A DNA stretch of 59,987 nucleotides from a virus (Duplodnaviria; Caudoviricetes), in the IMG/VR virus record IMGVR_UViG_3300041779_000001, positions 1 to 59,987 of that record; one strand, given 5' to 3'. Below are positions 528-57,473 of the stretch, piece after piece; the first letter of the stretch is position 1, and each line of letters opens with the position of its first letter. Both the position numbers and the translations under genes were made by a program. A model generated the notes under the pieces. It made no database searches, was not told the origin of the DNA, and worked only from the letters and a program-made list of their open reading frames with translations.

Positions 528-1009
528 ATGATCGACCAAGCCGCGACTTCGTGCTGATGAACAATGCCGTCCTTTGGGGCATGCGTAGTACCTGCACTCG
601 GGCAGGAGTAGGGGTAGTAATCTCTAAGGATGGTCGCATTCTCGCCAGTGGGTACAATGGTGCACCCTCGGGCATGGACCACTGCGACCATAGCTGTAAC
701 TGCGACTGGTTGGTAGATGGTAACAAGGGCTTGCATGAGAGCGATTGCCGATATAAGCAGCCCTGCAAGAACGTGGTACATGCCGAGGCAAATGCCATCG
801 CTTTCGCCGCTCGGTTCGGGGTGGGAGTAGAAGGAGCCGAGCTGTTCACCACTAGGGTACCCTGTCTAACCTGTGCTGGAATGATCATCAATGCCGGCAT
901 CAAACGGGTAGTATGGAGCGAGGAACATCGGGACATGGAGGGCTTCCTGCGCCTTGGACAGGCTGGTCTGGAGGTGGTACAATATGACCATGACCAATCT
1001 GAAGCCTGA
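524..1009 (+). CDS. dCMP deaminase
   Basis: STCTRAGVG, SGYNGAPSG, HAEANAI and PCLTC zinc-deaminase motifs. Confidence 0.93.
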   Translation: MNDRPSRDFVLMNNAVLWGMRSTCTRAGVGVVISKDGRILASGYNGAPSGMDHCDHSCNCDWLVDGNKGLHESDCRYKQPCKNVVHAEANAIAFAARFGVGVEGAELFTTRVPCLTCAGMIINAGIKRVVWSEEHRDMEGFLRLGQAGLEVVQYDHDQSEA

Positions 1010-3560
1010 CCGTGGCTGTACTTCGTGCAAGCTCCATCGCAATGCTGAGACTGTCTGTGAGATGGGCACAGGCCCTCGGGATGCCGAGATCATGGTCATC
1101 GGCAAGATGCCCAACTCAGGTCGGTATCAGCAGTCTCTGGAATCTCAGCTAGAGGAAGTTGGCCTCGACCCGAACCGGGTCTACTTCACCGCTGCTCTGA
1201 AGTGCAAGAACTTCGAGGACAATGCCAGTAATGCCGATGTCAAGGCTTGCCGGCAGCATCTCGAGCGTGAGATCGAGGTCGTAAGGCCAAGTCACATCTT
1301 GGCTCTAGGTAATGAGGGACTGCTCGCATCCACTGGGCACTCAGGGATTACCAAGTACCGGGGCAAGCCCATTGATAAGGGCGAGTATACCGTAATCCCT
1401 ACCGTCTCCCCAGCTGCTGTCCTGCGTAACCCCGGCCAGCGCCCCGGCTATATGGCTGACCTGCGGCTCTTCGCCAATGACTACTTGGGCTTGACTACGG
1501 GGGTTAAGGTACCCCAGTTCGCCAGGATTGATACCAAGGCGAAACTCAAGGCTCTCAAAAAGATCCTGTACATGTCCCACACCATCAGTTTTGACATCGA
1601 GACTACAGTCAACCCTCTGGGTGAGTTCGACCCCAAAGCTAAGATGATCTCGTTGGCGGGGACATGTTTTGCTACGGTTACTAATGAGGATGGTAGTGAG
1701 ACCGAAAAGATTTTCGGTTTCGCTTTGCCCCTGTACCATCCTGAGTCGGTCTGGCAGCGATCTTGGAAATGGGTACTAAAGTTCCTTAAGGGTGCTCTCG
1801 AGAGTATCGATAAGGGCATCGCTCAGAATGGTAAGTTTGACTGTCGTTGGCTTAAGCACTTTGGTGTTAACATGAAGCATACCTTCGACACCATGCTGGC
1901 CATTCATGTTCTAAACGAGAACATTGCCAAGGGCCTCAAGCCCAATGCTATGGCTCGTCTAGGTGTAGCACCCTGGGGCAGAGATACTAAGAACCTGTTG
2001 GGTGACCCCCTCAACGAAGTCCTTGAATATAACTTCCTGGACACCTACTATACCTACCTGATCTATAAGCAGCTCAGGGATGAGTTGGTAGAGCAACCTC
2101 GATTGCTGCGACTCTTTATGAAGTTGATGATGCCGGCAAGTCGAGACCTAGTGGACATCGAAAGGCGGGGGATCTGGCTTGATGTTCAACGGCTTACCAA
2201 TAGGAAGCCGATCGCAGAGGCTAAACTGGCTGAGATCGAGGCTAGTCTTAGCGAGTATCTACCCGATCCCGAGTCAGATGACTGGCCCATGGATTCCAAG
2301 GGTAAGAAGAAACTGGAGATCAACTACAATGCCAGTATCTTTGCTCGGTGGTTTCTCTTCGAGTGGCTACAACTTCCTGTCCTCGAACGGGGTAAGGAAA
2401 AGCCCGACGGCTCGCCGGGTGACCCTAGCATGGCTGAGTCGATACTCCTCCACCTTAAAGATCGTCACCCCGCAGTACAGTTGATGCTTGATCGTGTGGG
2501 ATGGCAGAAGAACCTCAGTTCATTCTTCAATGCATACGAAGTCATGTACGATGACAACCATCGGGTCCACACAACCTTCAAGCTTGCCGGTACCGTAACT
2601 GGTCGACTCAGTTCTGGGAAGGCTGATGCTGAAAAGGTCGGGGGTCGCACTGACCTGCGCGGGGTCAACCTTCAGCAGGTACCTCGGGACCCATTCATTC
2701 GGGGCATGTTCGGAGCACCGCCGGGATGGACTTTTGTCGAAGCTGACTATTCTCAGATCGAACTGAGGATTGCCGCGTTCATCGCCCATGAGCGTCACAT
2801 GATTCAACTTTACCAAGAGGGTGCCGACATTCACATGATCACCACTATGGGAGTCACTGGACTACCCAAGGCGGGGGTCACAAAGGAGATCCGTAAGAAA
2901 GTGGGAAAGCCGGTTAACTTTGGTTTTCTCTATGGTATGGGTTGGAAAAAGTTCATCGAGACCGCGTTCAACAACTATGGCGCGGTATTCAATGAGAGCG
3001 AAGCTAGAGCTTATCGAGAAGCTTACTTCAAGCTTTATCCCGACTTGCAGCGATGGCACGAGAGGCAGCGAAGGCTCGTCAGAGAAAACGGTAGGGTGCA
3101 GAGCCCCCTTGGGCGAGTGCGCCACCTGCCTGACATCTACTCGCCTGAGAAGGGGGTCCAGGCCGAAGCAGAGAGGCAGGCAATCAACTCGCCGGTGCAG
3201 GGCTTCGCCTCTGACATGGCATTGCTATCCATGACCCTGATCAATGCCGAGTTCAGGCGGCAGGGTATTGCCGGCAATTGCCTGGGACTGGTACACGACG
3301 CAATTAACTTCGAAATCCGAGACGATGATCTCGGGCGGGCCCTCCCTATCATCAAGGATACCATGGAGGATCCAGAACCTCTTAGGCAGAAATTCGGTAC
3401 TATTCTCACCATTCCGATTGTAGCTGACCTCAAACTGGGTCGTCACTGGGGTGACTCGAAGGAAGTTGAGAACCCAGAGGTGATCTACAGCGCGACTGAT
3501 CTGGCCTTCTGGATGGCTCAGAACCACCCCGCTTATCAGCACGGATCATTGGTTGCTTAG
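984..3560 (+). CDS. polA: Family A DNA polymerase with N-terminal uracil-DNA-glycosylase-like domain and 3'-5' exonuclease
   Basis: Exo I FDIET; TGRLSS, NLQQVPR, motif A ADYSQIELR, motif B KPVNFGFLYG, motif C VHD; N-terminal CxxCxLH...GPRDAEIMVIG...PAAVLR family-4 UDG pattern; ATG 984 follows GGAGG. Confidence 0.95.
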   Translation: MTMTNLKPDRGCTSCKLHRNAETVCEMGTGPRDAEIMVIGKMPNSGRYQQSLESQLEEVGLDPNRVYFTAALKCKNFEDNASNADVKACRQHLEREIEVVRPSHILALGNEGLLASTGHSGITKYRGKPIDKGEYTVIPTVSPAAVLRNPGQRPGYMADLRLFANDYLGLTTGVKVPQFARIDTKAKLKALKKILYMSHTISFDIETTVNPLGEFDPKAKMISLAGTCFATVTNEDGSETEKIFGFALPLYHPESVWQRSWKWVLKFLKGALESIDKGIAQNGKFDCRWLKHFGVNMKHTFDTMLAIHVLNENIAKGLKPNAMARLGVAPWGRDTKNLLGDPLNEVLEYNFLDTYYTYLIYKQLRDELVEQPRLLRLFMKLMMPASRDLVDIERRGIWLDVQRLTNRKPIAEAKLAEIEASLSEYLPDPESDDWPMDSKGKKKLEINYNASIFARWFLFEWLQLPVLERGKEKPDGSPGDPSMAESILLHLKDRHPAVQLMLDRVGWQKNLSSFFNAYEVMYDDNHRVHTTFKLAGTVTGRLSSGKADAEKVGGRTDLRGVNLQQVPRDPFIRGMFGAPPGWTFVEADYSQIELRIAAFIAHERHMIQLYQEGADIHMITTMGVTGLPKAGVTKEIRKKVGKPVNFGFLYGMGWKKFIETAFNNYGAVFNESEARAYREAYFKLYPDLQRWHERQRRLVRENGRVQSPLGRVRHLPDIYSPEKGVQAEAERQAINSPVQGFASDMALLSMTLINAEFRRQGIAGNCLGLVHDAINFEIRDDDLGRALPIIKDTMEDPEPLRQKFGTILTIPIVADLKLGRHWGDSKEVENPEVIYSATDLAFWMAQNHPAYQHGSLVA

Positions 3561-3904: not shown

Positions 3905-4963
3905 GTGCCTGGACTTTATTTTGATGAGAGCGTTGGGAAGTATGTTGTAACCCAATCCATGCTGAAGCTTTTCAAAACGTGCCCTCGGCAGACTCTGTAC
4001 AAGCAGGTAGAGCGCCTTAAGCCCCGAGTACTCTCCAAGCCTCTCAAGCGAGGCACATGGATGCACCACCTGCTGGAAGAACACCATGCCGGCAGAGACT
4101 GGCGAAAGATGCATGCCCAGTTGAGTACCCAGTTCGCCGGGTTGTTCGACGAGGAAAAGGATTTCTACGGCGATCTGCCAGTTGAATGTCTCGCTTTGAT
4201 GGAGTCTTACATCTGGCATTATGAGGCCGATCCCTGGATTGTCCATGAGACAGAGTTCACAGTCGAAGCAGAGTTCCCTGATGGCACCCTTTATCGAGGC
4301 AAGGTTGATGCTCTCATTGAGAACCAGTTCGGCCTCTGGATCGTAGACCATAAGACTCATAAGGTTCTGCCTAGTCATACTTTCCGTGTGCTAGATGCTC
4401 AGTCCGCCCTATACATCTGGGCAGCTAAGAAGATGGGTCTAAAGATCGAGGGCTTCATTTGGAACTACCTCAAGACTGTCGCCCCCTCCAAGCCCAAGCT
4501 TATCAAGAGTGGTGCTCGGTTGTCCAAGGTTATGGGGGATACTGACTATCTAACCTATACCCGAGAAATTCGACGACTGAAAGCCGAGCACGGCTATAGG
4601 ATCACGTCGGAGAATGTCGAGTTGTCTCGCCGACTAAAGGGTCATCGTTACGTACCTGGCGAACCCCAGCTCTCCGAGTTCTTCCGTAGGGATATCCTCG
4701 AGAAAGACGATGCGATGCTTCGGCGAGTTGCATCAGAGGCTTTCCACACCACCAGGCGCATGGCTAAGTATAACTTCGAACAGCGTGATGCAGTGGAGCG
4801 AAACTCCAACCGAAGTAACTGTGACTACATGTGCAGTTACCAAGATCTCTGTACAGTGGAACTCATCGGAGGCAATGTCGGGGCACTGCGTAAGAACTAC
4901 ACAATCGGCAACCCGCAAGATTATTACCAAGACAGAGCCGGCGAAGTAAAGGGGTCAGAATAA
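3905..4963 (+). CDS. PD-(D/E)XK (Cas4/RecB-like) exonuclease
   Basis: CPR, GTWMH, GKVDAL, IVDHKT, Q..LY and C-terminal CDYMCSYQDLC. Confidence 0.85.
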   Translation: MPGLYFDESVGKYVVTQSMLKLFKTCPRQTLYKQVERLKPRVLSKPLKRGTWMHHLLEEHHAGRDWRKMHAQLSTQFAGLFDEEKDFYGDLPVECLALMESYIWHYEADPWIVHETEFTVEAEFPDGTLYRGKVDALIENQFGLWIVDHKTHKVLPSHTFRVLDAQSALYIWAAKKMGLKIEGFIWNYLKTVAPSKPKLIKSGARLSKVMGDTDYLTYTREIRRLKAEHGYRITSENVELSRRLKGHRYVPGEPQLSEFFRRDILEKDDAMLRRVASEAFHTTRRMAKYNFEQRDAVERNSNRSNCDYMCSYQDLCTVELIGGNVGALRKNYTIGNPQDYYQDRAGEVKGSE

Positions 4964-7257: not shown

Positions 7258-7557
7258 ATGACAACACAACGCGAGTCTCGTATCAGTGGAAACATCTTGG
7301 ATGCCCTTCGTGCTCGAGGGGTATTCTGCTTCAAGATCCAGGGTGGTCCGACGATGATGAGGGGACTGCCGGACATCATCGCTTGTGTGGATGGCCACTT
7401 CGTGGGACTGGAAACAAAGGTTCCAGAAAAACGAGGTAATGTAAGCGTCATCCAGAGACGAGTTCATGAGTTGATGCGTCAGGCTGGAGCTACAGTGGTA
7501 GTAGTCTGCGGAGTGCAGGAAGCACTGGCAGTGATCGATCGAGTAAAGGGTGCATGA
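7258..7557 (+). CDS. VRR-NUC domain nuclease (Holliday junction resolvase-like)
   Basis: GLPDII...FVGLETK...Q pattern. Confidence 0.88.
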   Translation: MTTQRESRISGNILDALRARGVFCFKIQGGPTMMRGLPDIIACVDGHFVGLETKVPEKRGNVSVIQRRVHELMRQAGATVVVVCGVQEALAVIDRVKGA

Positions 7558-8138
7558 TGATTGCCTGGTACGATACGGAATTTCACGAGAGGGGCCATCA
7601 CTTCCCGATCGACCTTATCAGCATCGGGTTGGTGCGCCAAGATGGCTTCCAGTACTATGCCATCTGTTCAGAGTTTGACTTCGAGGCTGCCTGGAATAAC
7701 CCAGGCAAAGATGGCGACTACTGGTTGAGGGAGAATGTCCTCAAGCAACTACCCCTGATCTGGCCCGAGAATCGATCCACACCTAAGCTGGATAAGGCCC
7801 ATGCTAGTGTTCGTAGTCGGGCAGCAATCCGACGCGAGCTGATGGTCTTCCTCGGGCTAGATGGCCTGAACCCCGCTGAGATCGAGCTCTGGGCATGGTA
7901 TGCCGACTACGATCACGTCGTACTCTGTCAGCTCTTCGGGACTATGGCTGAACTGCCTGCTGGCATGCCTATGTTCACCCACGACCTCAAGCAGGAACTC
8001 GCCCTACATGGCAACCCGCCCATGCCGGCACAGGTGAGGGGGCATCACAACGCCCTCGATGATGCTTTGCACCTCAAGTATATGTGGTCGCATGCCAAGG
8101 CTCGAGGACTCGTCAACAAGACCACACCTATCAACTAG
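7554..8138 (+). CDS. DEDDh 3'-5' exoribonuclease, Rv2179c/RNase AS-like
   Basis: YDTEF, IDLISIG, WAWYADYDHV.LCQLFG.M..LP, HHNALDDA. Confidence 0.88.
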   Translation: MMIAWYDTEFHERGHHFPIDLISIGLVRQDGFQYYAICSEFDFEAAWNNPGKDGDYWLRENVLKQLPLIWPENRSTPKLDKAHASVRSRAAIRRELMVFLGLDGLNPAEIELWAWYADYDHVVLCQLFGTMAELPAGMPMFTHDLKQELALHGNPPMPAQVRGHHNALDDALHLKYMWSHAKARGLVNKTTPIN

Positions 8139-13230: not shown

Positions 13231-15272
13231 CAACTCCCAAGCCGGCAGTCGACCTCGGCAAAGCCCTTCGCATTATCTCGCGTGCATGGGGTAAGCAGTC
13301 TGGTTATGCCTTCTTCCCTTATATCGACCGAGCAGAACAGGAAGAGGCTGGACAGCGCCGAGCAGGCTTCCACGAGGGGCGGGCCTACGAGTGGCCCAAG
13401 GAAAAGGCCCAGATTCTTGAACACATGGCTGAGAACATCGGCCGTGATCTGTACTGGTGTCCCAACCTCTTCGAGGGCCCGGACCGCAAGTCAGAGCTCG
13501 CCATGGATGAACATGCCATGTGGGCAGATCTGGATGAAGCTGACCCTCGGATACTCAGTAATGAGTCCGACTTCAAACCTACAGTAGCTTGGGAATCCTC
13601 TCCCGGTCGGTATCAGGCATTGTGGCTGGGTAACCCCGATGTGGGTGATTTCCAGGGAGCTAGCTGGCCGGGTAACGAGAATCAGCGACTGAGCTATTAC
13701 CTCGGCGCTGACAAATCGGGCTGGGATACAACCCAGCTACTCCGGATTCCGGGTTGGCCCAACTGGAAACCTGAGTATCGCCGGAACGGCAAACCCCGCA
13801 TGGGTAAGCTGCTCTGGGATCGAGGGCCCATGTACAGCATGGAGGACTTCAAAGATCTCCCAGAGGTCAGAGGAGCCCTCACCCAGGACAAACTCGGCGA
13901 CATTCTTGAATCCGAAATCGATAACCTCGATCGATCCAAGATCATCGCTCGGATAAAGCTTAAGCTCAACCAGGTAGCTCGCGATCTGCTCACCTCCCGC
14001 ACAGCTGAGGGTCCACAGGGCTCGAGAGGGGATAATCTCTGGTACCTGATTAGATGCCTAGCAGATGCGGGCTGCACGGTTCAAGAGATCGTGGCAGTCG
14101 TTCGACCTTCGGTGTGGAATAAGTTCGAAGGCCGGCATGATGAGCTCAAGCGCCTGATCACTGAGGCGACGAAGGCCATCGATCAGCGCGATCCGGAAGT
14201 CGCGGAAGCTGTTGAGGAAGAGCAGGCACCCAAGTCGAGGCCCCAACGCCTCGCGGCCTTTCTCAAGAACGTGAAGCCGCCAACCTGGCTCGTGGATGGT
14301 ATCGCCACCGAGGGCAGCGTAGGCTTTATCGCCGGTTCACCGAAAAGTTTTAAGTCCTGGTTTGCCCTCGATCTCGCCCTATCCATCGCTACAGGTAGTC
14401 TCTTCCTCGATTACTTTCGGGTAGTCAAACCGGGTCGGGTACTATACATCCAGGAAGAAGATCCCGCTAGTACGGTCAAGGCTCGCACCAAGAAAATCTG
14501 GCGCAGTAAATCTTCAGATAAGATGACCATGGAACAGGGTGATGTACTCTGGTTGCCCGGTAATGACGACGACTTCGACCCCAACATCGACATTTACCTC
14601 ATGGAGGGCTTCGTAGTTTCTGAGGGTCATTGGCAAGAATGGCTCGATCAGGTAATGACTGAGGCCGCCGCTGAAGATGATCCCTACGTCATGGTTATTG
14701 TAGACACCCTCATGAACGTTGCCGGCGACGTTGAGGAAAACAAGTCACAAAGCATGACCACGAAGATCTTCAAGCCCATCAAGGTACTGATGAGGAAGCA
14801 CAATTCAGCTTTCCGTTTCGTTCACCACATGGGTAAGGGTGGCGATGATGGTACTAAACGAGGCGGTCAACGAATGCTGGGGGGCACAGCCAACCATGCC
14901 TGGGCTGAAGATAGTCTCTACATCTCAAGGGATAGTAAGCCTGGTCGAGTCAAGGTAGAGTTCGAATCCAAGTCAGCTCCCGAACAGCTTTACACCATCA
15001 GCGGTCTCGATAACCGCCTCTGGACTCCCTTCTTCGAGCCGGTACCCAAAAAGGATTCTCCCACACCCACAACGCCTGGCCGCGCACCGAGAGCCAAATC
15101 AAGCCAGCCTCACCCTGTCATGGAACTGCTCGGTCAAGGTGGTTCCTGGACTACACACGATGTCGCTGAGGCTACCGGAAAGCCCTACAATTCAACCTAC
15201 AAATCACTTCAGCGCTTCGAAGCGCGGGGTCTAATTACCAAGTCAGGCAAGGCCTGGCGACTAGGTACCTGA
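13227..15272 (+). CDS. Primase-helicase (RepB-like primase, AAA_25/RecA-like helicase, C-terminal wHTH)
   Basis: WADLD, WESSPGRYQALW, LLRIPG; Walker A GSPKSFKS; VLYIQEED; VIVDTL; FVHH. Confidence 0.88.
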   Translation: MTTPKPAVDLGKALRIISRAWGKQSGYAFFPYIDRAEQEEAGQRRAGFHEGRAYEWPKEKAQILEHMAENIGRDLYWCPNLFEGPDRKSELAMDEHAMWADLDEADPRILSNESDFKPTVAWESSPGRYQALWLGNPDVGDFQGASWPGNENQRLSYYLGADKSGWDTTQLLRIPGWPNWKPEYRRNGKPRMGKLLWDRGPMYSMEDFKDLPEVRGALTQDKLGDILESEIDNLDRSKIIARIKLKLNQVARDLLTSRTAEGPQGSRGDNLWYLIRCLADAGCTVQEIVAVVRPSVWNKFEGRHDELKRLITEATKAIDQRDPEVAEAVEEEQAPKSRPQRLAAFLKNVKPPTWLVDGIATEGSVGFIAGSPKSFKSWFALDLALSIATGSLFLDYFRVVKPGRVLYIQEEDPASTVKARTKKIWRSKSSDKMTMEQGDVLWLPGNDDDFDPNIDIYLMEGFVVSEGHWQEWLDQVMTEAAAEDDPYVMVIVDTLMNVAGDVEENKSQSMTTKIFKPIKVLMRKHNSAFRFVHHMGKGGDDGTKRGGQRMLGGTANHAWAEDSLYISRDSKPGRVKVEFESKSAPEQLYTISGLDNRLWTPFFEPVPKKDSPTPTTPGRAPRAKSSQPHPVMELLGQGGSWTTHDVAEATGKPYNSTYKSLQRFEARGLITKSGKAWRLGT

Positions 15273-15499
15273 CTTTCCTTATGCGCGCACGCCGGCCCGG
15301 ACAAGCTCCTTCCACGGATGGACCAACCATTATCCCACCAGGCGTTATGCCAGATAAGTTGAGACGTCAATGTAGTATCTACCCAACCCACGAAAGTCCC
15401 CTATGCGCACGTAATAATACCCGCGTAACAGCGAATGTAATGAGCTGGTAAGTATAGAATATACTTACTTACCCGCTGCAACCAAAAAAGGAAACCCCC

Positions 15500-15796
15500 A
15501 TGGACGAAACTGACCCCCTCGAAGCTCGAGATCAACGCCTCGCCCAACTCCGTACCACAGATCCAGTAGCCTGGGCCATCACACAGGGCAAACGAGGCCT
15601 TCTCACCATTGCCGAGTTCCTCCGCCTACCCCCCAACCAAGTAACCCCCGAGCTCCAACGACTCATTCGCACCAAGCAGGTAAAGGCCATCCCCTACCAT
15701 GGAACCAAGTCCTACCGACCTCAAAGCCAAGAAATGAAGAGACTAACTCGCCGAGCATATACGGTGAGAAGAAAAGAAGATCCTACCCTACGGTGA
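15500..15796 (+). CDS. Hypothetical protein
   Basis: AAGGAA RBS; shares LRxTDPxxWA...G motif with the next gene. Confidence 0.6.
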   Translation: MDETDPLEARDQRLAQLRTTDPVAWAITQGKRGLLTIAEFLRLPPNQVTPELQRLIRTKQVKAIPYHGTKSYRPQSQEMKRLTRRAYTVRRKEDPTLR

Positions 15797-15886
15797 AGAA
15801 GGCCCTGGCATTGCCATCGCCGCTCGATCGCTCCGCGCTCGCGCCGTGACAACACAAGATCAATTCTACCTCGGGAGTAATGGGAA

Positions 15887-16234
15887 ATGCAGGACTGGGC
15901 AGACGAAGTAGACGTTACCATCGAACAAGCTGACCACCTCAATGATCTCCAAAAACTCAGAGAAACTGATCCCATCCTCTGGGCTCTCATGCTAGGCCTC
16001 CGCACCAGCCGTTCCATCGCCCGCCACATCACCCAGCCCCACTACTACGTCCTCCGATACCTCCGAGCCTGCAAAATGGAAACGGGCCACGTCACTGACC
16101 GGGAAGGTCGCCGCTCGGTTGAGTGGGTGCTGACGGAAAAACTGCCCAATGAACTCTGGGAACTCACACTATGGGTACGGGCAGAACTCAAGCCCGGGGG
16201 CCTCTTCAATCCAAACGAGGAACGAGAAGCCTAA
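15887..16234 (+). CDS. Putative winged-helix protein
   Basis: LRETDPILWALMLGLRTSRSIARH...W. Confidence 0.6.
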   Translation: MQDWADEVDVTIEQADHLNDLQKLRETDPILWALMLGLRTSRSIARHITQPHYYVLRYLRACKMETGHVTDREGRRSVEWVLTEKLPNELWELTLWVRAELKPGGLFNPNEEREA

Positions 16235-16286
16235 CCTCACCGACAGGGTGATTGCGGGGCCCGGCTGGCTGATATAGGGTGGGGCC

Positions 16287-16505
16287 ATGCGAATCACACT
16301 GGCAGTAATAGCGGCCGCACTCATCCTGGGCTATACCCACATCTGGTGGCTGGCTGCCGGCGGGGGGATAATCGCCTACTTCTGGGTCCCCCGTCCGGCC
16401 TCCGCAAAGCGCGTGCTGGTCGAAGACCTCGAGAAGGGCACCGTCCGCATACAGCCCATGGACCGCGACACCGAGCACTACCTCAAAACTCGAAAGGACG
16501 TATAA
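16287..16505 (+). CDS. Small membrane protein (leaderless)
   Basis: Two hydrophobic segments; TAGGGT-N6-ATG. Confidence 0.65.
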   Translation: MRITLAVIAAALILGYTHIWWLAAGGGIIAYFWVPRPASAKRVLVEDLEKGTVRIQPMDRDTEHYLKTRKDV

Positions 16506-16509
16506 CTGA

Positions 16510-16677
16510 ATGGAAGCTGAAGAAATAGTCCGGGCCCTCGAATCATCCCCCGCAGAAATCCCCGACAATGCCGAGGTCAGCATACTCACCCCCGAGGCCA
16601 TGGTCTACAAAGTGGTCGAGGTCGAATATGAGGCCGAGACCAACACCGTCTGGCTCAAGGTAGAGGAGGTCGAGTAG
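16510..16677 (+). CDS. Small acidic protein, 55 aa, absent from the ORF track
   Basis: MEAEEIVRALESSP...VWLKVEEVE; fills the gap; AAGGA upstream. Confidence 0.65.
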   Translation: MEAEEIVRALESSPAEIPDNAEVSILTPEAMVYKVVEVEYEAETNTVWLKVEEVE

Positions 16678-16679
16678 TC

Positions 16680-17174
16680 TTGGCTCGAGAGATTCGACCC
16701 CTAGCTGACCCGGGTGTGGACGCCCTCGATGACAAGGTCCGCGCTCGGCTCGCTGAGATCAGGGCTGCGGCAGGCGTTCCACACAGCCAGATCTCGCTGG
16801 AGGTACTCTACTTCTTGCCCAAGGCCTTCCTGACGCAGTATGAGCAGATGTTCACGAGGGCTCTCAAGGCTGATGGTGGGGAAAGCCAGCGCAATGCTTC
16901 TCAGCATGAGGCTGGGCAAGTGGGTAAGGCCACTGGGGGACGAACTGGTGGTGCCGGCAAGAAGTACAAGAAGACCTTCGTGGTGCTAGATGAACGGGCT
17001 CTCCATCTGAAGACTGGGATGGATAAGCGACTACGCATGATAGCTCGGGATATCGAGGCTGGGCTGCTTGGGACGACAGTCGAGGCTAAGCAGGCGAACT
17101 GCGGCTCGTGTGGGATGTTCGTGAAGGCCGATTGGAAGTTCTGCCCCATGGATGGCATGCTGCTTGCCGATTGA
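16680..17174 (+). CDS. Hypothetical protein with C-terminal zinc ribbon
   Basis: CGSCG...WKFCPMDG; GAGGAGG RBS. Confidence 0.7.
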   Translation: MAREIRPLADPGVDALDDKVRARLAEIRAAAGVPHSQISLEVLYFLPKAFLTQYEQMFTRALKADGGESQRNASQHEAGQVGKATGGRTGGAGKKYKKTFVVLDERALHLKTGMDKRLRMIARDIEAGLLGTTVEAKQANCGSCGMFVKADWKFCPMDGMLLAD

Positions 17175-18722
17175 TGATGACGGGCTTGGAGCAGGGCACG
17201 GATTGATGGAAGTAGTGGGCACTAGAATATTATCCTGCTCACTACTTTCATCGTGTAGGGGCCCTCTCAGGGACAGTTTAGAGAAGCACTGCTGATCGCT
17301 GATCGATCGCATATCGAAGGGCATTAACCACGATGGATAATACACGCTTGGAATGGATCGAGTGCGAGCTCTGCGGTATGCTGTATACATGGTTCAGGGT
17401 GGAGGTTATTGAAGGGCTTGTGATGTATGGGTGGCTGCATAAGACTGATGGTGACTGCAGTAAGGACGGAGGATTGCAATGGAGTGAGTGACTACTTGGA
17501 GTGAGTAGGTCGAGGTGACTGACTACATGGGGCTTTGGTCCGAACTTGATGGGGTATCGGGGTTAGTGAGTTAGCTTACGGGGGAACCGGGACAGAGTGA
17601 CGAGGCTCGGGGATAAGGGGTGAAAGGACTACTGCCTGTCCGGGCCTTGATGGAGGAACGTGGTGTGTATGGTTGACTGCGGGTGAATTTCGATTAAAGC
17701 CTACGTTCACTACGGAGTTGGACCAAACACGGATCTGACGTACCGGTCGCTGGGGGGTAAACTGACACTGTCTAGAGGACTACTGGGATTCCGTAGAACA
17801 CTCTAGAGAGCACTACCCGAACCTGGGAGAAAACACGGGGAAAACACGGGGAAACTCGAGGCTTTTTTCGGGACTTTTCCTGGGAAAAAACAGGGAAATT
17901 CTCTGGGAAAAGACCCACCAATATACATATGTATACTATGCAGGACTTCAAGTCTATACCCGGGAGATGGTACTGTATCCCAGGGTACAAATCCTGGCTT
18001 TTCCAGTCTTTTCTAGTAGATAATCGTGTTGTCAATGTCAACGTCAACTTTTACATGGCTTAGGTTTATAGGTATTGACATTATGGTTGGTCGCAGAAAT
18101 TGACGTCAATGTGACATACATAGGAACCAACTTTAGGTTCGAGTTCCGGGTCAATTTCTCTGTCTGGAGTTTGTCTATACCGTAGCTGCAGCGCTTCCGG
18201 TCCGGTATTACGGGAGCTGCTGGGGTTTGGAGCCCAGGGAGTTGGCATCTTGGATGTCAGAACTTATTGGGAAACTTCAGGATACGTCGTAATAAAGTGC
18301 CATGTATCCCGAGTTAATACCCAGTACCATCCAAATCGGACATTGTCCCCGTTGCGTCCAAAGGGGAGGAAGGGGCGGTATGCCTCAATGCTACCATCTC
18401 CGTCATTGGGACCATAGGCGATGTTTGGGATTAATCTCCGGGAAGCGACGATCATGCGAAAACGGACATTGTAGATCATGTCGGCCTTGGAGCCCATATC
18501 CCCGTGAGGGGGCTAGGTGCATGATGAATCGACGCGATACGCTCTGTCAGTCGCCACGTGAGGGCGTAGGGGGGCATGCCCTGAAGCTAGCTATCCGGGC
18601 GAGGGTCACCCCCTCAGTGACGGCGTCAGGGGCCGCATCGACTCCCCTCACGCGCGCATGATCGCGAGTATGGGGGGCATAATCCTGGCATATGCCACCT
18701 CGGGGTTGATCATGGTATCGAC

Positions 18723-18752
18723 TTGACAAGGGGGGCGAGGGGATGCAATAAT
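18723..18752 (+). promoter_or_regulatory. Sigma70-type promoter
   Basis: TTGACA-N18-AATAAT with G-rich spacer. Confidence 0.65.
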
Positions 18753-18796
18753 GATGACATCACCGCACGACACGACGATACGAAGGACTGATCATC

Positions 18797-19219
18797 ATGA
18801 CCGCATACAACACTCGCTCCCTCGCCGAGGCGCTGATCGGCGACGACGGCAAGCAGGCGACGCGCACGACTCGCAAATTTCTGCGCGATGAACTCGGCGG
18901 GGGAAAGGCAGTGGTCGGCAAGGGGGGGCGCTACAATCTCGACTACAATAAGCGCGAACTGACCGCCCTCACGAAGAAGTTTAAGGCATGGGAAACCGCT
19001 CAGGAAGCGGCGAAGATCGCTCGCGCCGCCGAAATGGCCGAAAGGGCCAAAACGGCCGGGACCGCCGTTATCCTCCCCGATGACTCGAACGGGGACGACG
19101 CCGACATCCTCGACGAAAACACCGAATCGGACAACCCGGCCACCGGGCCCACCGACGAGGAAATGGCCGAAATGCTGGCCGAAGGGGACGACGAGGACGA
19201 AACGGACATCGAGGACTGA
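18797..19219 (+). CDS. HTH-like DNA-binding protein with acidic tail
   Basis: RKFLRDE...VGKGGRYNL resembles 10033-10596; GAAA-loop hairpin at ~19228-19245 follows. Confidence 0.75.
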   Translation: MTAYNTRSLAEALIGDDGKQATRTTRKFLRDELGGGKAVVGKGGRYNLDYNKRELTALTKKFKAWETAQEAAKIARAAEMAERAKTAGTAVILPDDSNGDDADILDENTESDNPATGPTDEEMAEMLAEGDDEDETDIED

Positions 19220-19361
19220 TCGCCCAAGGCCCCCGAAAGGGGGCCGAAGGGTGTGTAATCGCCAGGGGGCGTTCTGCGCGCAGCAATCGGGGTGTGGAAT
19301 GCTAGCATACACCCCGCGATGATCTTGCCTTACAACGTCATACAAAGCTTCGGCGATTTCC

Positions 19362-19390
19362 TTGACACCGTGGGGGCGAGGGGGTAAAAT
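19362..19390 (+). promoter_or_regulatory. Near-consensus promoter for a leaderless gene
   Basis: TTGACA-N17-TAAAAT-N6-ATG. Confidence 0.8.
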
Positions 19391-19396
19391 AAAGGT

Positions 19397-19612
19397 ATGA
19401 ACAACGACGATGCAATCGACAATGCAATTGACGCCCTCGATGAATTCCTGACCCGCGCGATCGACGCTCTGCCGATCACCGCCTTCGAAATCTCTTCCGA
19501 TGATGCTAATGCCATCATCGCATCGATCCCCGAATCGATGATCAAACTCTCCGACGCCCTATACGATGCTTTCATCGAAAATATCCCCGATTTCACTTCG
19601 CCTGACGCCTAA
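19397..19612 (+). CDS. Small highly acidic protein
   Basis: Leaderless start; D/E-rich with one K and one R. Confidence 0.7.
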   Translation: MNNDDAIDNAIDALDEFLTRAIDALPITAFEISSDDANAIIASIPESMIKLSDALYDAFIENIPDFTSPDA

Positions 19613-19700
19613 ACTGATCTCCCCCTGCCCCCTTGACACGGGGGGGCAGGGGGGGGTATGATTGACTTATCAACCCGACGACCACGAAGGACTGATTCAA

Positions 19701-19901
19701 ATGCCCGTTTCCCTCGCCAAAAACCTTGACATTTGCTCCAACTGCGGCCGCGACTGCGCGCCGACGCCCTCGATCGAACTTGACCCTCTCTGCTCCGCCT
19801 GCATCGCCGACTTCCGCGCCCGCGATATCAATCTCCCCATCGACACCCTGCACGACCTCGCCCCCATCCTCGCCGATCACATCACCGACTACCTCCGCTG
19901 A
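19701..19901 (+). CDS. Small zinc-finger protein
   Basis: CSNCGRDC...LCSAC; GAAGGA RBS; TTGACA-N18-TATGAT promoter at 19633. Confidence 0.65.
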   Translation: MPVSLAKNLDICSNCGRDCAPTPSIELDPLCSACIADFRARDINLPIDTLHDLAPILADHITDYLR

Positions 19902-20015
19902 TCGACCCCCTGACGCCCCCTACGGGGGGCTGATGGGCGTGCGCATCATTGCCGTATGCCAGCATTCTCGACGCCCAGGGACGCCCTCAGAGGGCGCGTC
20001 AGCGCCCCCCTCGAG

Positions 20016-20231
20016 TCAGTGCGCGATATTGCGCGCGTTGCAGAGTTTGATCATCGCGTCGGAGATCAGTTGAAGATCGGTGGAGGGGTCGTAGTCGATC
20101 TTGTCGTGAATCAAGATCGTTTCGGCGATATCGGCGAAATCGTCGTCGTTCAGCGCAGTGGGGGTCGGGTCGTAGTCGAGAAGATCAGCGAGGGCGATTT
20201 CAGCGATTCGGTTGATCGTGTCGTTGTTCAT
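20016..20231 (-). CDS. Small acidic protein (leaderless)
   Basis: TTGACA-N17-TAGAAT-N6-ATG on the minus strand; shares MNND and MIKL with 19397. Confidence 0.7.
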   Translation of the reverse strand: MNNDTINRIAEIALADLLDYDPTPTALNDDDFADIAETILIHDKIDYDPSTDLQLISDAMIKLCNARNIAH

Positions 20232-20362
20232 ACTTCGATTCTATACTGCGTCAGCGACGGTGTCAACAATGCATGCATGCTGAACCCTTCCTTGACGCCC
20301 CCCTCGCATCATGGTAAAGTATACCTATCAACCTGAACCGCGACCCTGAGGGACTGATCATC

Positions 20363-20644
20363 ATGACCCGCACGACGATTCACACCTCCGACGGCGATAC
20401 CTATTACCGATCAGGCGCCGCCCGCACGCTGATCACCCGCGCCCTGCTCGGCATTCTGATCTTCGCCGCGCTGATCATCGCCATCGCCGCGGGAATCGGC
20501 TTTTCCCAGGCGGGGAATTCGAATTCCCCCTCCCCCAAGGAATTCTCCATTCTGCACAATGCGCAAAAGGAAATGCCGAATGGGAATTGCCGCCTCGAAT
20601 GGAATTCCATTCAGAAAGGGCATGAAGTAATCTGCGATCGCTGA
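20363..20644 (+). CDS. Membrane-anchored protein
   Basis: One TM helix; TTGACG-N17-TAAAGT promoter at 20292. Confidence 0.65.
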   Translation: MTRTTIHTSDGDTYYRSGAARTLITRALLGILIFAALIIAIAAGIGFSQAGNSNSPSPKEFSILHNAQKEMPNGNCRLEWNSIQKGHEVICDR

Positions 20645-20803
20645 ATTGCCCTCGCCCCCTCCGGGGGGCTGAGCGGCGTCGTAAGGCATGATCCTTCCTA
20701 CAGGAATGCTGGCATACGGGACGGGATGATCATGCCCCCACACCCCCAAAGATTGCTACGTCAGGTCCTTGACACTACCCGGCCTAGGGGGTATATTTAA
20801 GGC

Positions 20804-21367
20804 ATGACAACGACACCGCACACCGACTGCCACCACCCCGCGACGAAGGCCGCCCGCGCGAAGTGCCGCAAGGCCCGTGCGGTGCAGGTCGAGGCCCCCC
20901 GCACGATGAACCTTGACGAGGTGATCAAAGCCTACTACAATAACTCCCTTGACATGGAGGAAATCGCCTCGCGGCTGATCGCCCTCGCCCCCAAGGCCGC
21001 CGAGGGATTCTACAACAACTCCCTCACCAACGAGGAAGTCATCGCCGAGGCCATGAAGGCCCTCAACGGCCCCACTGAGGCCCCCGCGACCGCCCCCGAA
21101 CCTGAGGCCACCCGCATCCATCCGATGCTTCTCGACGCCGTTAACCCCATGATCACCCTCACCGCGAATGACTCCTCAACTGAGGTTCCCTACCTCGACC
21201 TGAAGCTGATCATGCGCACCCCCCACCCGAGCCGGGTAATGGCCGGGGGAATGGGAAAGGCAATGCTTCGCCACCGCCAAATCCTTCGCTCCCTTACCGC
21301 GGCATTGGGAATCACCGAGGATAAGGCAATCGCCCTCGCCAATGCCGCGGTAATGGAATTGCAATAG
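20804..21367 (+). CDS. Hypothetical protein with N-terminal HxxCxHxxTKAARAxCR motif (leaderless)
   Basis: TTGACA-N17-TATATT-N6-ATG; internal YNNSL..EE repeat. Confidence 0.7.
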   Translation: MTTTPHTDCHHPATKAARAKCRKARAVQVEAPRTMNLDEVIKAYYNNSLDMEEIASRLIALAPKAAEGFYNNSLTNEEVIAEAMKALNGPTEAPATAPEPEATRIHPMLLDAVNPMITLTANDSSTEVPYLDLKLIMRTPHPSRVMAGGMGKAMLRHRQILRSLTAALGITEDKAIALANAAVMELQ

Positions 21368-22025
21368 GGGGCCGGGGGCCTATATAGGGTCCTTTCCCCT
21401 GTGTATTCCCATATTGCCGGGGCGCATATAGGCGGGGGCATTGGGCATGCGCATTGCGCCCCATATCCCTGCCCCTATCCCTGCCTTTATGGATAGGCAA
21501 TGCATGCATCATGCGCATTGGTGATGAATGCATATTGCCGGCATATATATCCGGGGGGCTATAGGCTGGGGGTATGGGTATGGGCCCCTATTCCCAATCA
21601 ATTGATCTGATGTTATATCCCATTGATTCATCATGCATGCATTGTTCTAATCGGAATGATCTGATGCGCGCATGCATTGTTGATAGGGAATGATCCGGTG
21701 TATGATTGATGCGGCATGAATGCATAGGGATAAGCGGGATCTATCCGTGTTTATTCCGGAATATTCCATTGTATTCTAGTATGTTCCGGTGTGGTCGGAT
21801 TGGTCTAGTTCAGTCTAATTTGGTTAGATCTTACGATTTGTGATGAATGTCCGTTCCCAGAGGTATGAACCCCCCGGGATAAATATCCCCCATGTCCGGT
21901 TTGTACCCGTCCGGACCATAGTGCCCGCGTGCTCTTCCTTCTTTCCCAGAAACCCTATCCACGTATAGCCACCTAAAAATGAAGCGCCTGTCGAGTACCC
22001 GCACGAGATCTGATAGCATAGCCCC

Positions 22026-22286
22026 ATGACCGACAACGACGACGACGACGACGAATTGACCGGTGAATGGGCCCACGAGGTCTACATCCCCCAGCTGCAA
22101 CTCGACCTCCAGGAAGCCCAATACTTCGAACCGCCCGACATTAGCTTCGACGACGTCCTAGAGCCCGAGCCCTGGACCTGCAAGTATCGCGCCCCGGCTT
22201 GTGTGGACGGCTATCACGGGGCGACCTGCGATAACTCCTGCGACCGATTCCGTACAGCCCAGCTCAGGCGGGAAGGGAAGATCTAG
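22026..22286 (+). CDS. Acidic, Cys-containing hypothetical protein
   Basis: TAGCAT-N6-ATG; first gene of a plus-strand run. Confidence 0.6.
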   Translation: MTDNDDDDDELTGEWAHEVYIPQLQLDLQEAQYFEPPDISFDDVLEPEPWTCKYRAPACVDGYHGATCDNSCDRFRTAQLRREGKI

Positions 22287-22291
22287 CACCC

Positions 22292-22735
22292 ATGACCGAC
22301 GAGCACCTCGAGAAGTTCCTGATCTCAGGCCATGGCGACAACAGCCTACTGATTTGCGCGGCTGAACCATGTGAGTGGTACATGCCTTTCCCAACGGCCC
22401 ACTCACTCCTCCGCATGATGCACCAGGCAGACCTGCACGCCACCACCAATCACGGCTACATACCCCCGGTTCGTGTGGAAGGATACCTGCCGCCGGGAAC
22501 CACCGTATACGAGAGTGAGGCCGACTACCGCAAGAGACGCTACAACCCCGTCGACAAACGGTGGCTTTACCCCGAGGAGAGTGACTACGAGCCCGAGCCT
22601 CCGCCGAAAGAGCCCAACGACACTCCACACCCCTTCGTGCCCAGAGCAACTTTTGGGGCGGTCTCCAAGCACTGCGAGGAGTGCTACCCCACTCGTCGCC
22701 GGCAGGGTCACCCGATTCATACACAGAGAGACTGA
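22292..22735 (+). CDS. Hypothetical protein
   Basis: Operon packing; C/H ligands. Confidence 0.6.
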   Translation: MTDEHLEKFLISGHGDNSLLICAAEPCEWYMPFPTAHSLLRMMHQADLHATTNHGYIPPVRVEGYLPPGTTVYESEADYRKRRYNPVDKRWLYPEESDYEPEPPPKEPNDTPHPFVPRATFGAVSKHCEECYPTRRRQGHPIHTQRD

Positions 22736-22738
22736 GTC

Positions 22739-23161
22739 ATGACCGATGAGTTCCAGTACCCGCCCGGCATCACCGACAAGGCAGCCTACGACGCCCAGAC
22801 CTACCTGGAGGGCGGTACTGAGGAGGCTATGGCGGCTGCGGCTCGTATGGATGCAGCCCCTGCTTGTGTCACCCACGCCTACGGTACCTGCGATGGCACT
22901 ACTAGAGACTGCGTACTTCTCAAGAAGAAAGAGACACCCATGCATTCTTTCGAGGCCCCGTCGGGCACCACGTACCACCACAACGGCGACTTCAGCGGCA
23001 ACATCGTCATGGACGGAGAAGATCGACTGGGTGGGGACATCGAGATTCCGTTCGAGGACATCCGGGCTCTGTACCTGGAGTCCCTGCGCCGCAGCAAGAT
23101 CTCGGCACTCGAGCAGGCATCTGCTGACTTCCTAGAAGAAGCTGCTCGGAGGGGACTGTAA
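22739..23161 (+). CDS. Hypothetical protein
   Basis: Operon packing; HHNGDFSG segment. Confidence 0.6.
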   Translation: MTDEFQYPPGITDKAAYDAQTYLEGGTEEAMAAAARMDAAPACVTHAYGTCDGTTRDCVLLKKKETPMHSFEAPSGTTYHHNGDFSGNIVMDGEDRLGGDIEIPFEDIRALYLESLRRSKISALEQASADFLEEAARRGL

Positions 23162-23442
23162 TGAAGATCAGGGATCGGAACCCCGATAATCCCCGGGCGG
23201 TATGTATCCACTGCGGCACGTGGGTATGCCATGAGTGCTGGGATTGGCATCGTAATGGGGCTGCTCGGAACGGTCATCAGATCTGCATCAAGTGTGGGGG
23301 GATCGAGGGGGAGTTCATCGCGGTCCGGCATAACAAGGAGGGTCACGATGTACTCTCCGCTCCTGCCCCGTTGATCCTGCACCGGATGTTCGTAGTCGGC
23401 CCTAAAGGGCAAATCAGCCTTTGGCGGCCGGGCTGGAGATGA
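23161..23442 (+). CDS. Cys-rich zinc-finger protein
   Basis: CIHC, CHEC, CIKC; TAATG overlap. Confidence 0.6.
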   Translation: MKIRDRNPDNPRAVCIHCGTWVCHECWDWHRNGAARNGHQICIKCGGIEGEFIAVRHNKEGHDVLSAPAPLILHRMFVVGPKGQISLWRPGWR

Positions 23443-23633
23443 TAGCATAATTCCATGGCGCCCCGGATACTGACCCGATTGTACTGACGAAGGCGGAGAG
23501 AGATTCGCCGCAGGAAGAATTGGGAGGCTTTCTGCTTTAACTATGCGCCCGCGGATAAGTGGTACAGGGTCCAGGAAGAAAATAGGGTCCTGGGCATCTG
23601 GGACGGCACCTATGAATTGCCGGAGGAGAAAAA

Positions 23634-24212
23634 GTGACACTACAGGACGCGATCATCGAGATCTTGGCTGACGGGGGTCCAATGACCCTCGATAATCTCC
23701 GACTTCAGTTGGCTGGGGAACTGCCGGGTAACGGGGTCACTGGGATAAACCCCATCAACATCAACAATGCCCTAACTGACCTGAGGATCGCGGGTCGGGT
23801 CACCAATGAGTGGCGACTGAGCGGGCCTGACGAGGGTTCGACGACGGGCATTGATCCGGGGGTGCGTGAACAGGCCCTGGACATGGCGATTCGGGCCTAC
23901 AGGCCCAACCCCATCGACAACCCGAAGACCCTCCGAACTCAGCTGCTGGCGATGGCTGAGGAGTTCTATGCCTTCTTGATGGGGGCAGAAATCCAAACCG
24001 AGGCGGTTCGGCCTTCACGTCAGTACTCGGGGGGCATGGTCCGGCTCGACGCCAGCAAGTCTCCCAGTGACCCTTCGGCTGTCACAAAGGCTGATGAGCC
24101 CATGCCCGAGGGCTTCCATCGGAAGACTTCTGGGGAGCGCCCGGTCAAGACCAAGTCCTTCACCGACGACTTCGCGGAGATGAACGAGTACAATAGCCCC
24201 GAAACCGACTAG
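23634..24212 (+). CDS. Hypothetical protein with N-terminal winged-helix-like domain
   Basis: AIIEILADGGPMTL...L..L...GRV...W; GGAGG RBS. Confidence 0.6.
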   Translation: MTLQDAIIEILADGGPMTLDNLRLQLAGELPGNGVTGINPININNALTDLRIAGRVTNEWRLSGPDEGSTTGIDPGVREQALDMAIRAYRPNPIDNPKTLRTQLLAMAEEFYAFLMGAEIQTEAVRPSRQYSGGMVRLDASKSPSDPSAVTKADEPMPEGFHRKTSGERPVKTKSFTDDFAEMNEYNSPETD

Positions 24213-57317: not shown

Positions 57318-57473
57318 TTGACTCGGGCAGTATCCCTCTTGAAGCGAGAAGCTATACGTGAGAGGGCCCGAACCACTAAGGCCGTCGCCGCGGCTATTGC
57401 GATGAGTTTTCTCGCGGTAGTCGCGGCGGCTGCCGCCGTCGCTATGACTCGAGCTTTGATTTGGATGTGGTGA
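57318..57473 (+). CDS. Small membrane protein, 51 aa, absent from the ORF track
   Basis: TTG start, Ala-rich TM helix, TGATG overlap with the next gene. Confidence 0.5.
   Translation: MTRAVSLLKREAIRERARTTKAVAAAIAMSFLAVVAAAAAVAMTRALIWMW

Follow-up and report, generated by a model that had tools for sequence, protein, structure and literature searches.

We analysed a 59,987-bp window, a complete virus record of a soil phage (Duplodnaviria; Caudoviricetes; IMG/VR record IMGVR_UViG_3300041779_000001). Three small genes in this window (genes 1, 2 and 3) almost completely exclude the dinucleotides GT, GG and AG (hereafter, forbidden pairs or sites; GU, GG and AG in RNA) from their coding strands. 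They lie in a putative early block, in which the following features were recognized or predicted (nucleotides are abbreviated as nt).

18723–21367, + strand: whole early block, with a helix-turn-helix (HTH) gene (18797–19219), genes 1–3, a membrane-like gene (20363–20644) and the gene at 20804–21367
19362–19390, + strand: predicted promoter of gene 1 (TTGACA, 17 nt, TAAAAT; 11 of 12 consensus positions), followed by the six bases AAAGGT and then ATG
19397–19612, + strand: gene 1, encoding an acidic protein of 71 amino acids; GT, GG and AG are absent from 19397 to 19639
19617–19657, + strand: terminator hairpin of gene 1, with a 19-bp stem, a C-run in the 5′ arm and a G-run in the 3′ arm
19633–19662, + strand: predicted promoter of gene 2 (TTGACA, 18 nt, TATGAT; 11 of 12 consensus positions)
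19663–19700, + strand: 5′ leader of gene 2 (38 nt), in which the only forbidden pairs are the AG and GG of a Shine–Dalgarno-like GAAGGA (19686–19691)
19701–19901, + strand: gene 2, encoding a four-cysteine protein of 66 amino acids, with one GT (Val3) and one GG (Gly16)
19902–20015, no strand assigned: convergent terminator region common to genes 2 and 3, GG/CC-rich
20016–20231, − strand: gene 3, encoding an acidic protein of 71 amino acids, with one AG (in an AAG lysine codon) and neither GT nor GG
20238–20266, − strand: predicted promoter of gene 3 (TTGACA, 17 nt, TAGAAT), followed by the six bases CGAAGT and then ATG

Coding-strand counts of GT/GG/AG were 0/0/0 in the 216 nt of gene 1, 1/1/0 in the 201 nt of gene 2 and 0/0/1 in the 216 nt of gene 3, identical to the counts made by eye in an earlier reading of this DNA from its letters (the sequence-only reading). 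The opposite strand is rich in the set: AC, CC and CT together occur 49, 70 and 59 times on the coding strands of genes 1, 2 and 3, respectively. Genome-wide, 200-nt windows hold a median of 41 forbidden pairs (1st percentile, 18), and windows with six or fewer are confined to the coding strands of the three genes, which bears out the earlier observation that the bias flips with gene orientation. Ordinary genes of the phage carry approximately 20 sites per 100 nt; across 134 chunks of 216 nt taken from 24 such genes, the minimum was 13.5 per 100 nt and none was without GT, GG or AG. The exclusion is far beyond chance. G is not avoided as such—every G in the three genes stands in a (C/T)G(A/C) context, CG reaches about twice the genome mean and GA occurs at 10.7, 6.5 and 12.6 per 100 nt in genes 1, 2 and 3 (genome mean, 7.4). 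No further trinucleotide avoidance was seen relative to the first-order (dinucleotide) expectation.

Depletion of GT extends to the neighbouring genes. As the sequence-only reading had also noticed, GT is scarce at 18797–19219 (4 in 423 nt) and 20363–20644 (1 in 282 nt), and on the sense strand of every early-block gene between 18797 and 21367 it falls to 0–1.8 per 100 nt, compared with a genome mean of 5.5. The lowest 1% of GT windows in the genome all lie within 18716–21349, and the minimum of AC is found over the minus-strand gene. AG and GG, unlike GT, are avoided by only some of the early genes.

The exclusion acts on nucleotides

When synonymous codons were redrawn with the protein kept and the codon usage of the genome applied, genes 1, 2 and 3 contained on average 13.3, 18.6 and 10.7 forbidden pairs, compared with the 0, 2 and 1 observed, and none of 5,000 draws was as low as the native sequence in any of the three. 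Shuffling the order of codons gave means of 8.6, 5.4 and 8.6, with 0, 31 and 0 of 5,000 draws as low as observed. The depletion thus exceeds both synonymous and codon-shuffled expectations, the latter being the control that the sequence-only reading had proposed, and these synonymous and junction controls contradict an origin in amino-acid composition alone. The proteins are nonetheless affected: glycine, valine and tryptophan together occur 0, 2 and 0 times in proteins 1, 2 and 3, with approximately 12 expected in each. Glutamate is encoded by GAA in 7 of 7 cases although GAG accounts for 58% of glutamate codons genome-wide, and lysine by AAA in 3 of 4 although AAG accounts for 81%. The choice of third base in a codon thus depends on the base that opens the following codon, a pattern that only a constraint on nucleotides accounts for. 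The exclusion is visible in amino acids, synonymous codons and codon junctions, and acts on nucleotides. A cause at the level of codons or tRNAs was ruled out by the junction control and by the coverage of untranslated stretches. What is left is an agent that recognizes a single strand of transcribed sequence: the RNA, the displaced non-template DNA or the template.

The three messages also fold less stably (−43.1, −26.5 and −44.7 kcal/mol) than ordinary 216-nt gene chunks (−70.2 ± 8.6 kcal/mol). The idea that codons were chosen to minimize mRNA folding was not supported for genes 1 and 3, for which 31 and 77 of 100 recodings, respectively, fold no better.

The exclusion follows predicted transcripts

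Five promoters that match 11 of 12 sigma-70 consensus positions lie within approximately 2.1 kb (18723–20797), and a 5.4-kb scan returned 10 promoter-like sites, compared with 4.2 ± 1.8 in shuffled sequences. Each early gene is predicted to have its own near-consensus promoter of the host type. Given the six-base spacing between the −10 element and ATG, the mRNAs of genes 1 and 3 are predicted to be leaderless; in the six bases themselves (AAAGGT and CGAAGT), forbidden pairs persist up to the predicted position −1, and there are none after the predicted +1. At the other end, the gene 1 hairpin is unusually stable (−40.1 kcal/mol, z −5.17; 0 of 200 shuffles as stable), and the first forbidden pair of the transcript, at 19640, is the G-G that opens the paired 3′ arm of this terminator. 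With these predicted ends, the single-stranded part of the gene 1 transcript, from +1 to the paired terminator arm, contains zero sites, and the site-free zone covers the 3′ untranslated stretch too. The spacers have ordinary or high densities, with 44 forbidden pairs on the + strand in 177 nt (19220–19396), 17 in 88 nt and 20 in 114 nt (15–25 per 100 nt), and the promoters and terminators between the genes have abundant GG/CC, GGCC included.

The gene 1 terminator overlaps the gene 2 promoter (19617–19662), such that the −35 element TTGACA (19633–19638) covers the last part of the 5′ arm together with the loop while the G-rich 3′ arm serves as the promoter spacer. Early genes with a leader have a common upstream word, (G/A)AGGACTGAT(C/T)A, at 18780–18796, 19684–19700 and 20346–20362; we take it to resemble an extended Shine–Dalgarno sequence (AAGGA plus UGAUC) that is complementary to a longer stretch of the 16S 3′ tail. 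Long open frames lie antisense to all three genes (19330–19596 (−), 19593–19880 (−) and 19956–20336 (+)); they are promoterless, have low-complexity-looking translations and were taken as by-products of the skewed composition.

Related phages and the likely genome end

The terminase of the window phage is 62–63% identical to those of Curtobacterium phage Shrew and Microbacterium phages Triscuit and Huwbert, all of which are lytic siphoviruses, and these relatives place its host, by inference, in the Microbacteriaceae. Shrew has a terminal repeat of approximately 4.5 kb (from duplicated coordinates), and an excerpt of the Triscuit genome paper gives a direct terminal repeat of approximately 3.8 kb (PMC7302621). 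In both phages, the equivalents of the three genes sit inside the terminal direct repeat. By synteny, the three genes of the window would lie at the terminal-repeat end and be the first to enter the cell. The proposal that they are read first by host RNA polymerase, made in the sequence-only reading, gains support from this location and from the five promoters with 11 of 12 consensus positions, and we regard the three genes as probably immediate-early.

We scanned 13 related records over their full or available extent (Triscuit, Shrew, the ten records G001–G010 and the short contig L025). Windows of 150 nt with at most six sites occur in 9 of the 13, and windows with none in 4 (Shrew, G005, G009 and G010). 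G001 and G003, whose completeness is rated at 100%, have no exclusion zone, nor do G007 and G008, which are fragments in neither of which the early HTH gene was found. Site-free genes include 18682–18909 (+) of G009 (75 amino acids), an orthologue of gene 1 at 39% protein identity, and 6388–6729 of L009/G005 (113 amino acids); Shrew gp8, gp9 and gp10 contain 2, 0 and 0 sites. Together with the three genes of the window, these make eight credible genes with 0–2 sites, and in all eight the set is missing from the coding strand, whichever DNA strand that is. The annotated Shrew gene 7 has 0 sites and fits this polarity, but is doubtful as a gene. In the junction control, none of 5,000 draws was as low as observed for any of the five genes of the relatives. 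The sequence-only reading would have been undermined by absence of the depletion from relatives; coding-sense exclusion instead recurs in the IMG/VR contigs G009 and L009/G005 and in Shrew.

The strength of the exclusion varies. The gene 1 orthologue of G002 has 11 sites in 198 nt (5.6 per 100 nt), gene 2 orthologues have 13.7 (G001), 8.5 (G003) and 1.0 (window) per 100 nt, and Triscuit genes 6 and 7 show a weaker form. Shrew gp8–10 go further, as they also lack AC, CC and CT, use 10 of the 16 dinucleotides and encode proteins without glycine, valine, threonine and proline; the non-coding stretch at 4138–4427 of Shrew follows the same dinucleotide rule as the neighbouring gp8–10. In G009, the site-free zone reaches 325 nt upstream of the promoter of the gene, across a C-rich repeat array. 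As a rough outside control, we used 80 listed loci (746,840 bases) from other viral contigs, a non-random sample picked by a promoter-plus-start pattern that 39 further stretches beyond those listed also match. Among the loci listed, none has a 150-nt window at zero of either set, and 6 of the 80 have 150-nt windows with four or fewer, all at 42% G+C or less.

Predicted leaderless early proteins begin with Met-Asn-Asn or Met-Thr-Asn (ATGAACAAC or ATGACCAAC), as seen at 19397 and 20231 (−) of the window, 18682 of G009, 6388 of L009 and in the orthologues of G001, G003 and G006. AAGG is often present in the six bases ahead of their ATG.

The encoded proteins

Proteins 1 and 3 contain no glycine, valine or tryptophan, in agreement with the earlier remark that two of the proteins have no valine or glycine, and are acidic, with 16 aspartate plus glutamate and 2 lysine plus arginine residues in protein 1 and 15 and 4 in protein 3. 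Protein 2 has one valine, one glycine and four cysteines arranged like a zinc ribbon (CxxC...CxxC). All site-free proteins, in the window and in relatives, are strongly acidic (10–26 Asp+Glu compared with 2–12 Lys+Arg; computed isoelectric points of 4.05–4.47), and they are built from 15–17 amino acids. The gene 1 family has three members (window, G002 and G009) with 17 invariant columns. A model of the gene 1 protein shows three helices (predicted local distance difference test score (pLDDT) 69), and at this model quality no PDB entry matched it at E ≤ 0.001. Pfam gave no match at E ≤ 0.1 for any of the three proteins, and PHROGs returned one weak family without an assigned function (E = 0.0057). 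A homologue search found the query protein itself and one 65-amino-acid JGI protein, a scan of metagenomes with a single protein yielded one 2,993-base contig, and a tblastn search of a phage collection with the gene 1 and HTH proteins gave 0 matches.

Genes 1 and 3 were rejected as paralogues, as BLASTP gives no alignment, though both proteins begin with MNND and contain MIKL. An Ocr- or ArdA-like DNA-mimic identity was likewise not adopted: a recognizable family or fold was not found, and acidity alone fits. Nucleic-acid mimics and nuclease inhibitors are expected to be acidic. Going by position, size and charge only, the small acidic proteins are probably counter-defence factors, for example, nucleic-acid mimics or inhibitors.

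Genome content and flanking regions

Domain searches of the phage genome identified a family-A DNA polymerase with an N-terminal uracil-DNA glycosylase (UDG) domain, a RepB-primase/helicase, a PD-(D/E)XK nuclease, an SNF2 helicase and a GH25 lysin; the terminase, a portal protein and tail fibre proteins were recognized by a PHROG search. No near-identical phage record was found by megablast, and no Rfam family reached its gathering score. The genes relevant to nucleotide metabolism are the following.

524–1009: dCMP deaminase (Pfam, E = 2.5 × 10−20), with an open frame antisense to it at 430–936
954–3560: DNA polymerase I with an N-terminal UDG-family domain
57461–58513 and 59025–59909: two thymidylate-synthase-like proteins

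The phage probably makes a non-canonical pyrimidine in its DNA, judging from this gene content. The sequence-only reading had linked the exclusion to a cytosine pathway; the dCMP deaminase and the two thymidylate-synthase-like proteins point to a pathway of the uracil/thymine type instead.

Directly upstream of the early block, approximately 1.5 kb (17150–18700) is without a convincing gene; its + strand is G-rich (GC skew of +0.26 in 17001–18000) and CC-poor, and it may hold the physical genome end or a packaging site. Among the sequencing runs listed, one DNA data set, possibly the source of this DNA, and no RNA data set contained the window; its contigs cover 15000–24000 as one flat contig, uninformative as to genome ends, repeat copy number and expression. 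Non-coding arrays in which TATA-like boxes alternate with G-runs or C-runs adjoin the early genes in the window (21368–21960), Shrew (3990–4160 of L003), L010 (13800–14400) and G009 (18356–18680 of L040). In the window array, AC occurs once in 21368–21860, and 28 of the 33 A residues in 21368–21560 precede a T; the arrays of G009 and G010 each have two halves that read outward as strands free of GT, GG and AG. Promoter-like decoys, packaging signals or an origin are possible functions. GATC is abundant genome-wide (451 sites, 7.5 per kb) and reaches 12.2 per kb in 18700–21400. A gene with an Rv2179c-like 3′–5′ exoribonuclease domain lies at 7554–8138 (Pfam, E = 1.9 × 10−8), with a counterpart in 0 of the 8 relatives compared. 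A tRNA-Pro(CGG) called by ARAGORN at 45681–45754 falls within an open reading frame of 1,117 amino acids (43007–46360) and is probably a false call.

Possible causes of the exclusion

The pattern suggests an agent in the infected cell that attacks GU, GG and AG in RNA. We tentatively favour, at less than even confidence, a scheme in which selection has cleared the first transcripts of the dinucleotides recognized by an enzyme that cleaves or modifies RNA in single-stranded form; this is an RNA-targeting version of the sequence-specific host nuclease or toxin raised by the sequence-only reading. In such a scheme, immediate-early genes, two of them leaderless, would be transcribed first from the genome end that enters first, and an enzyme active at the onset of infection would attack single-stranded RNA at GU, GG and AG. 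An endoribonuclease would qualify, as would an RNA modifier (for example, an ADP-ribosyltransferase); the enzyme may belong to a host defence or be a toxin or, less likely, a host-shutoff factor of the phage. If a single hit inactivates the message, selection would purge every site at the price of losing glycine, valine and tryptophan; after the early proteins have been made, later genes would need no protection. The RNA level is favoured because the surviving sites would be paired (the terminator arm) or ribosome-occupied (the Shine–Dalgarno sequence), because the exclusion is absolute, as expected if one hit kills the message, and because GG and AG are tolerated in adjacent early genes whose promoters are equally good, which fits a need limited to the very first proteins better than a permanent template block. 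The relatives lend further support: the gene 1 orthologues of the window and G009 share 39% of their residues and yet both have zero sites, indicating persistence of the constraint, and the graded series of gene 2 orthologues, together with the gene 1 orthologue of G002, fits a per-site cost. That distant relatives avoid the same set points to a single kind of agent, and the uneven strength of the avoidance suggests that exposure to this agent differs from host to host.

An enzyme with this type of action has been described. According to an excerpt of bioRxiv 10.1101/2024.02.24.581662, CmdT attaches ADP-ribose to single-stranded RNA at GA dinucleotides, leaves double-stranded RNA untouched and thereby blocks phage translation. 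It serves as a precedent and not as an identification, because GA is enriched in genes 1 and 3, and evasion of CmdT-type GA modification was rejected, with GA undepleted in the three genes. Several points weigh against an RNA-level agent. Our searches of the literature found no agent or enzyme specific for GU, GG and AG. The motifs ACA, UAC, GCU, UCGCU, UCCU and RNCNU, which we take to be those of known toxins and mycobacterial RNase E, are not depleted in the three genes. The ban on AC, CC and CT in Shrew, including its non-coding stretch, is not explained by a single RNA-level agent; the boundaries do not always coincide with one transcript, given the 325 nt beyond the promoter in G009; and an exclusion zone is missing from G001 and G003, the closest relatives. 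Start sites, expression timing and the terminal-repeat location in this genome were deduced from promoter matches and synteny, and the role of the proteins finds no support in a Pfam or structural match.

A cause on one DNA strand is an unlikely alternative, in which either a template modification hinders host RNA polymerase at AC, CC and CT or an enzyme specific for single-stranded DNA acts on the exposed non-template strand of heavily transcribed genes. Confinement of the zone to transcribed DNA and its flip with gene orientation would fit, and the dCMP deaminase, the two thymidylate-synthase-like proteins and the UDG-domain polymerase suggest non-canonical pyrimidines; moreover, excerpts of published work report that phage thymidine hypermodification occurs in specific sequence contexts (PMC8989533), that phage T-dioxygenases favour NTC or NTG (PMC13229309) and that DarT1 is a guanine-specific ADP-ribosyltransferase on single-stranded DNA, for which, however, no consensus motif was found (PMC11543638). 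Three unrelated dinucleotides would all have to be modification contexts, and the two thymidylate-synthase-like genes occur in 6 of 8 relatives searched (both misses are partial records), including the zone-free G001 and G003. The terminator arms and the Shine–Dalgarno sequence of gene 2 put CC runs into the template within the transcribed region. Early genes 18797 and 20804, with equally good promoters, hold 10.7 and 6.4 GG per 100 nt, and as they carry many GG and AG, a polymerase block at template CC or CT is hard to sustain. Selection at the nucleotide level tied to the direction of transcription, as the template-modification idea of the sequence-only reading implied, is upheld, whereas modification itself is weakened (not refuted) by the zone-free relatives and the GG/AG-rich neighbours. 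Avoidance in double-stranded DNA of restriction sites or CRISPR protospacer-adjacent motifs (PAMs) in the first-entering DNA is highly improbable. The likely location in the leading terminal repeat (from synteny) would suit it, Shrew bans the set on both strands, and a one-strand ban removes every palindrome with GG/CC, AG/CT or GT/AC. The explanation nonetheless predicted both-strand and intergenic depletion, and neither is seen: each gene has the set in abundance on its complementary strand, the promoter spacers and terminators between the genes are GG/CC-rich with GGCC and leave the region as a whole unprotected, the single GG of gene 2 sits in GCGGCCGC, and polarity follows the coding sense in 8 of 8 credible genes. 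We rejected it on these boundaries and this strand asymmetry.

A rival at the level of translation, which we rate below a DNA-strand cause, holds that the messages were purged of pairing with the anti-Shine–Dalgarno sequence, as AGGAGGU is built around the steps AG, GG and GU, so that leaderless messages are read only from their 5′ AUG without internal 30S binding, pausing or false starts. It can call on the six-base −10-to-ATG spacing in two of the three window genes and in the site-free genes of G009, L009 and Shrew, on the sole AG and GG of the gene 2 leader being its Shine–Dalgarno sequence, and on the conserved nature of the ribosome, an agent that would fit the same set across different phages. 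Avoiding Shine–Dalgarno-like words of 4–6 nt, however, needs neither a ban on isolated AG, GG and GU nor the loss of three amino acids, and in the three genes these pairs are avoided regardless of context while GA, which is also in the motif, is kept and even enriched in genes 1 and 3. Many sites are tolerated by the predicted leaderless gene 20804 and by the orthologues from G001 and G003, the set is also missing from the 3′ untranslated stretches, and the additional ban on AC, CC and CT in Shrew, with its compliant non-coding stretch, is left unexplained. Equally improbable as restriction-site avoidance is the lack of any specific agent, with the pattern arising as a by-product of acidic composition, of selection for unstructured mRNA or of a transcription-linked mutation bias. 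The messages are indeed G-poor, C-rich and less stably folded than ordinary chunks, and all of the site-free proteins are acidic. This explanation is already contradicted by the codon controls, in which 0 of 5,000 draws were as low for genes 1 and 3 and the genes of the relatives, and by the folding test, in which the native codons of genes 1 and 3 do not minimize folding; in addition, CG is doubled rather than G shunned, there is no trinucleotide structure, and mutation bias would neither spare the promoter to position −1 nor keep the proteins conserved.

Relation to known systems and implications

To our knowledge, no cognate enzyme is known for messages free of GT, GG and AG. The situation is comparable to MazF-resistant ACA-less mRNAs, in which a short motif is missing from the sense strand through synonymous codons and the message survives an mRNA-targeting enzyme; those lack one word of 3–7 nt, whereas here three dinucleotides (six in Shrew) are missing, amino acids are lost and the genes are natural phage early genes. 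CmdT is a bacterial defence factor with mere dinucleotide specificity on mRNA that spares double-stranded RNA, matching the sites that survive in hairpin stems, but its target GA is enriched rather than avoided in genes 1 and 3, and CmdTAC has been studied in Escherichia coli with T-even phages. A further parallel is the avoidance in the first-step-transfer DNA of T5 and the early region of T7, which is concentrated where the genome acts before counter-defence and is associated with small acidic first products (compare T7 Ocr); unlike that avoidance of restriction sites in double-stranded DNA, which has no strand polarity, the present exclusion is strand-specific, operates on dinucleotides and halts at promoters and terminators. 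Suppression of CpG and UpA in animal RNA viruses is likewise a dinucleotide depletion driven by host immunity that senses or cuts RNA (ZAP and RNase L; see also PMC10191365), but is statistical and genome-wide, in contrast to an absolute exclusion in a few early genes of a DNA phage. As a case of motif avoidance, the exclusion is unusual because it concerns dinucleotides, is absolute and strand-specific, takes the shape of transcripts and is strong enough to reduce the amino-acid alphabet. We found no earlier description of dinucleotide-free phage genes in our searches of the literature (supplementary files lay outside them), and the available excerpt of the Triscuit genome paper does not mention the pattern (PMC7302621).

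More speculatively than for the RNA-level scheme itself, Microbacteriaceae phages may face an RNA-directed effector, immune or host-shutoff, that reads only dinucleotides around guanine (GU and purine-G). Their immediate-early genes would then have come to use a reduced set of dinucleotides (13 of the 16 possible in the window, 10 in Shrew), as a bacterial counterpart of CpG/UpA suppression, and the acidic proteins would be inhibitors of the effector.

The three genes illustrate how a constraint at the level of nucleic acids reshapes proteins, with whole amino acids lost in families that are still recognizable at 39–50% identity. Other phage genomes could be searched with the dinucleotide rule, a simple key to early or counter-defence genes of this type, and the availability of Shrew as an isolate makes the question open to experiment. 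If the RNA-level scheme holds true, sequence alone would flag the first-acting genes of a phage together with the specificity of an RNA-targeting activity in its host, and would offer a direct route to both the effector and its inhibitors.

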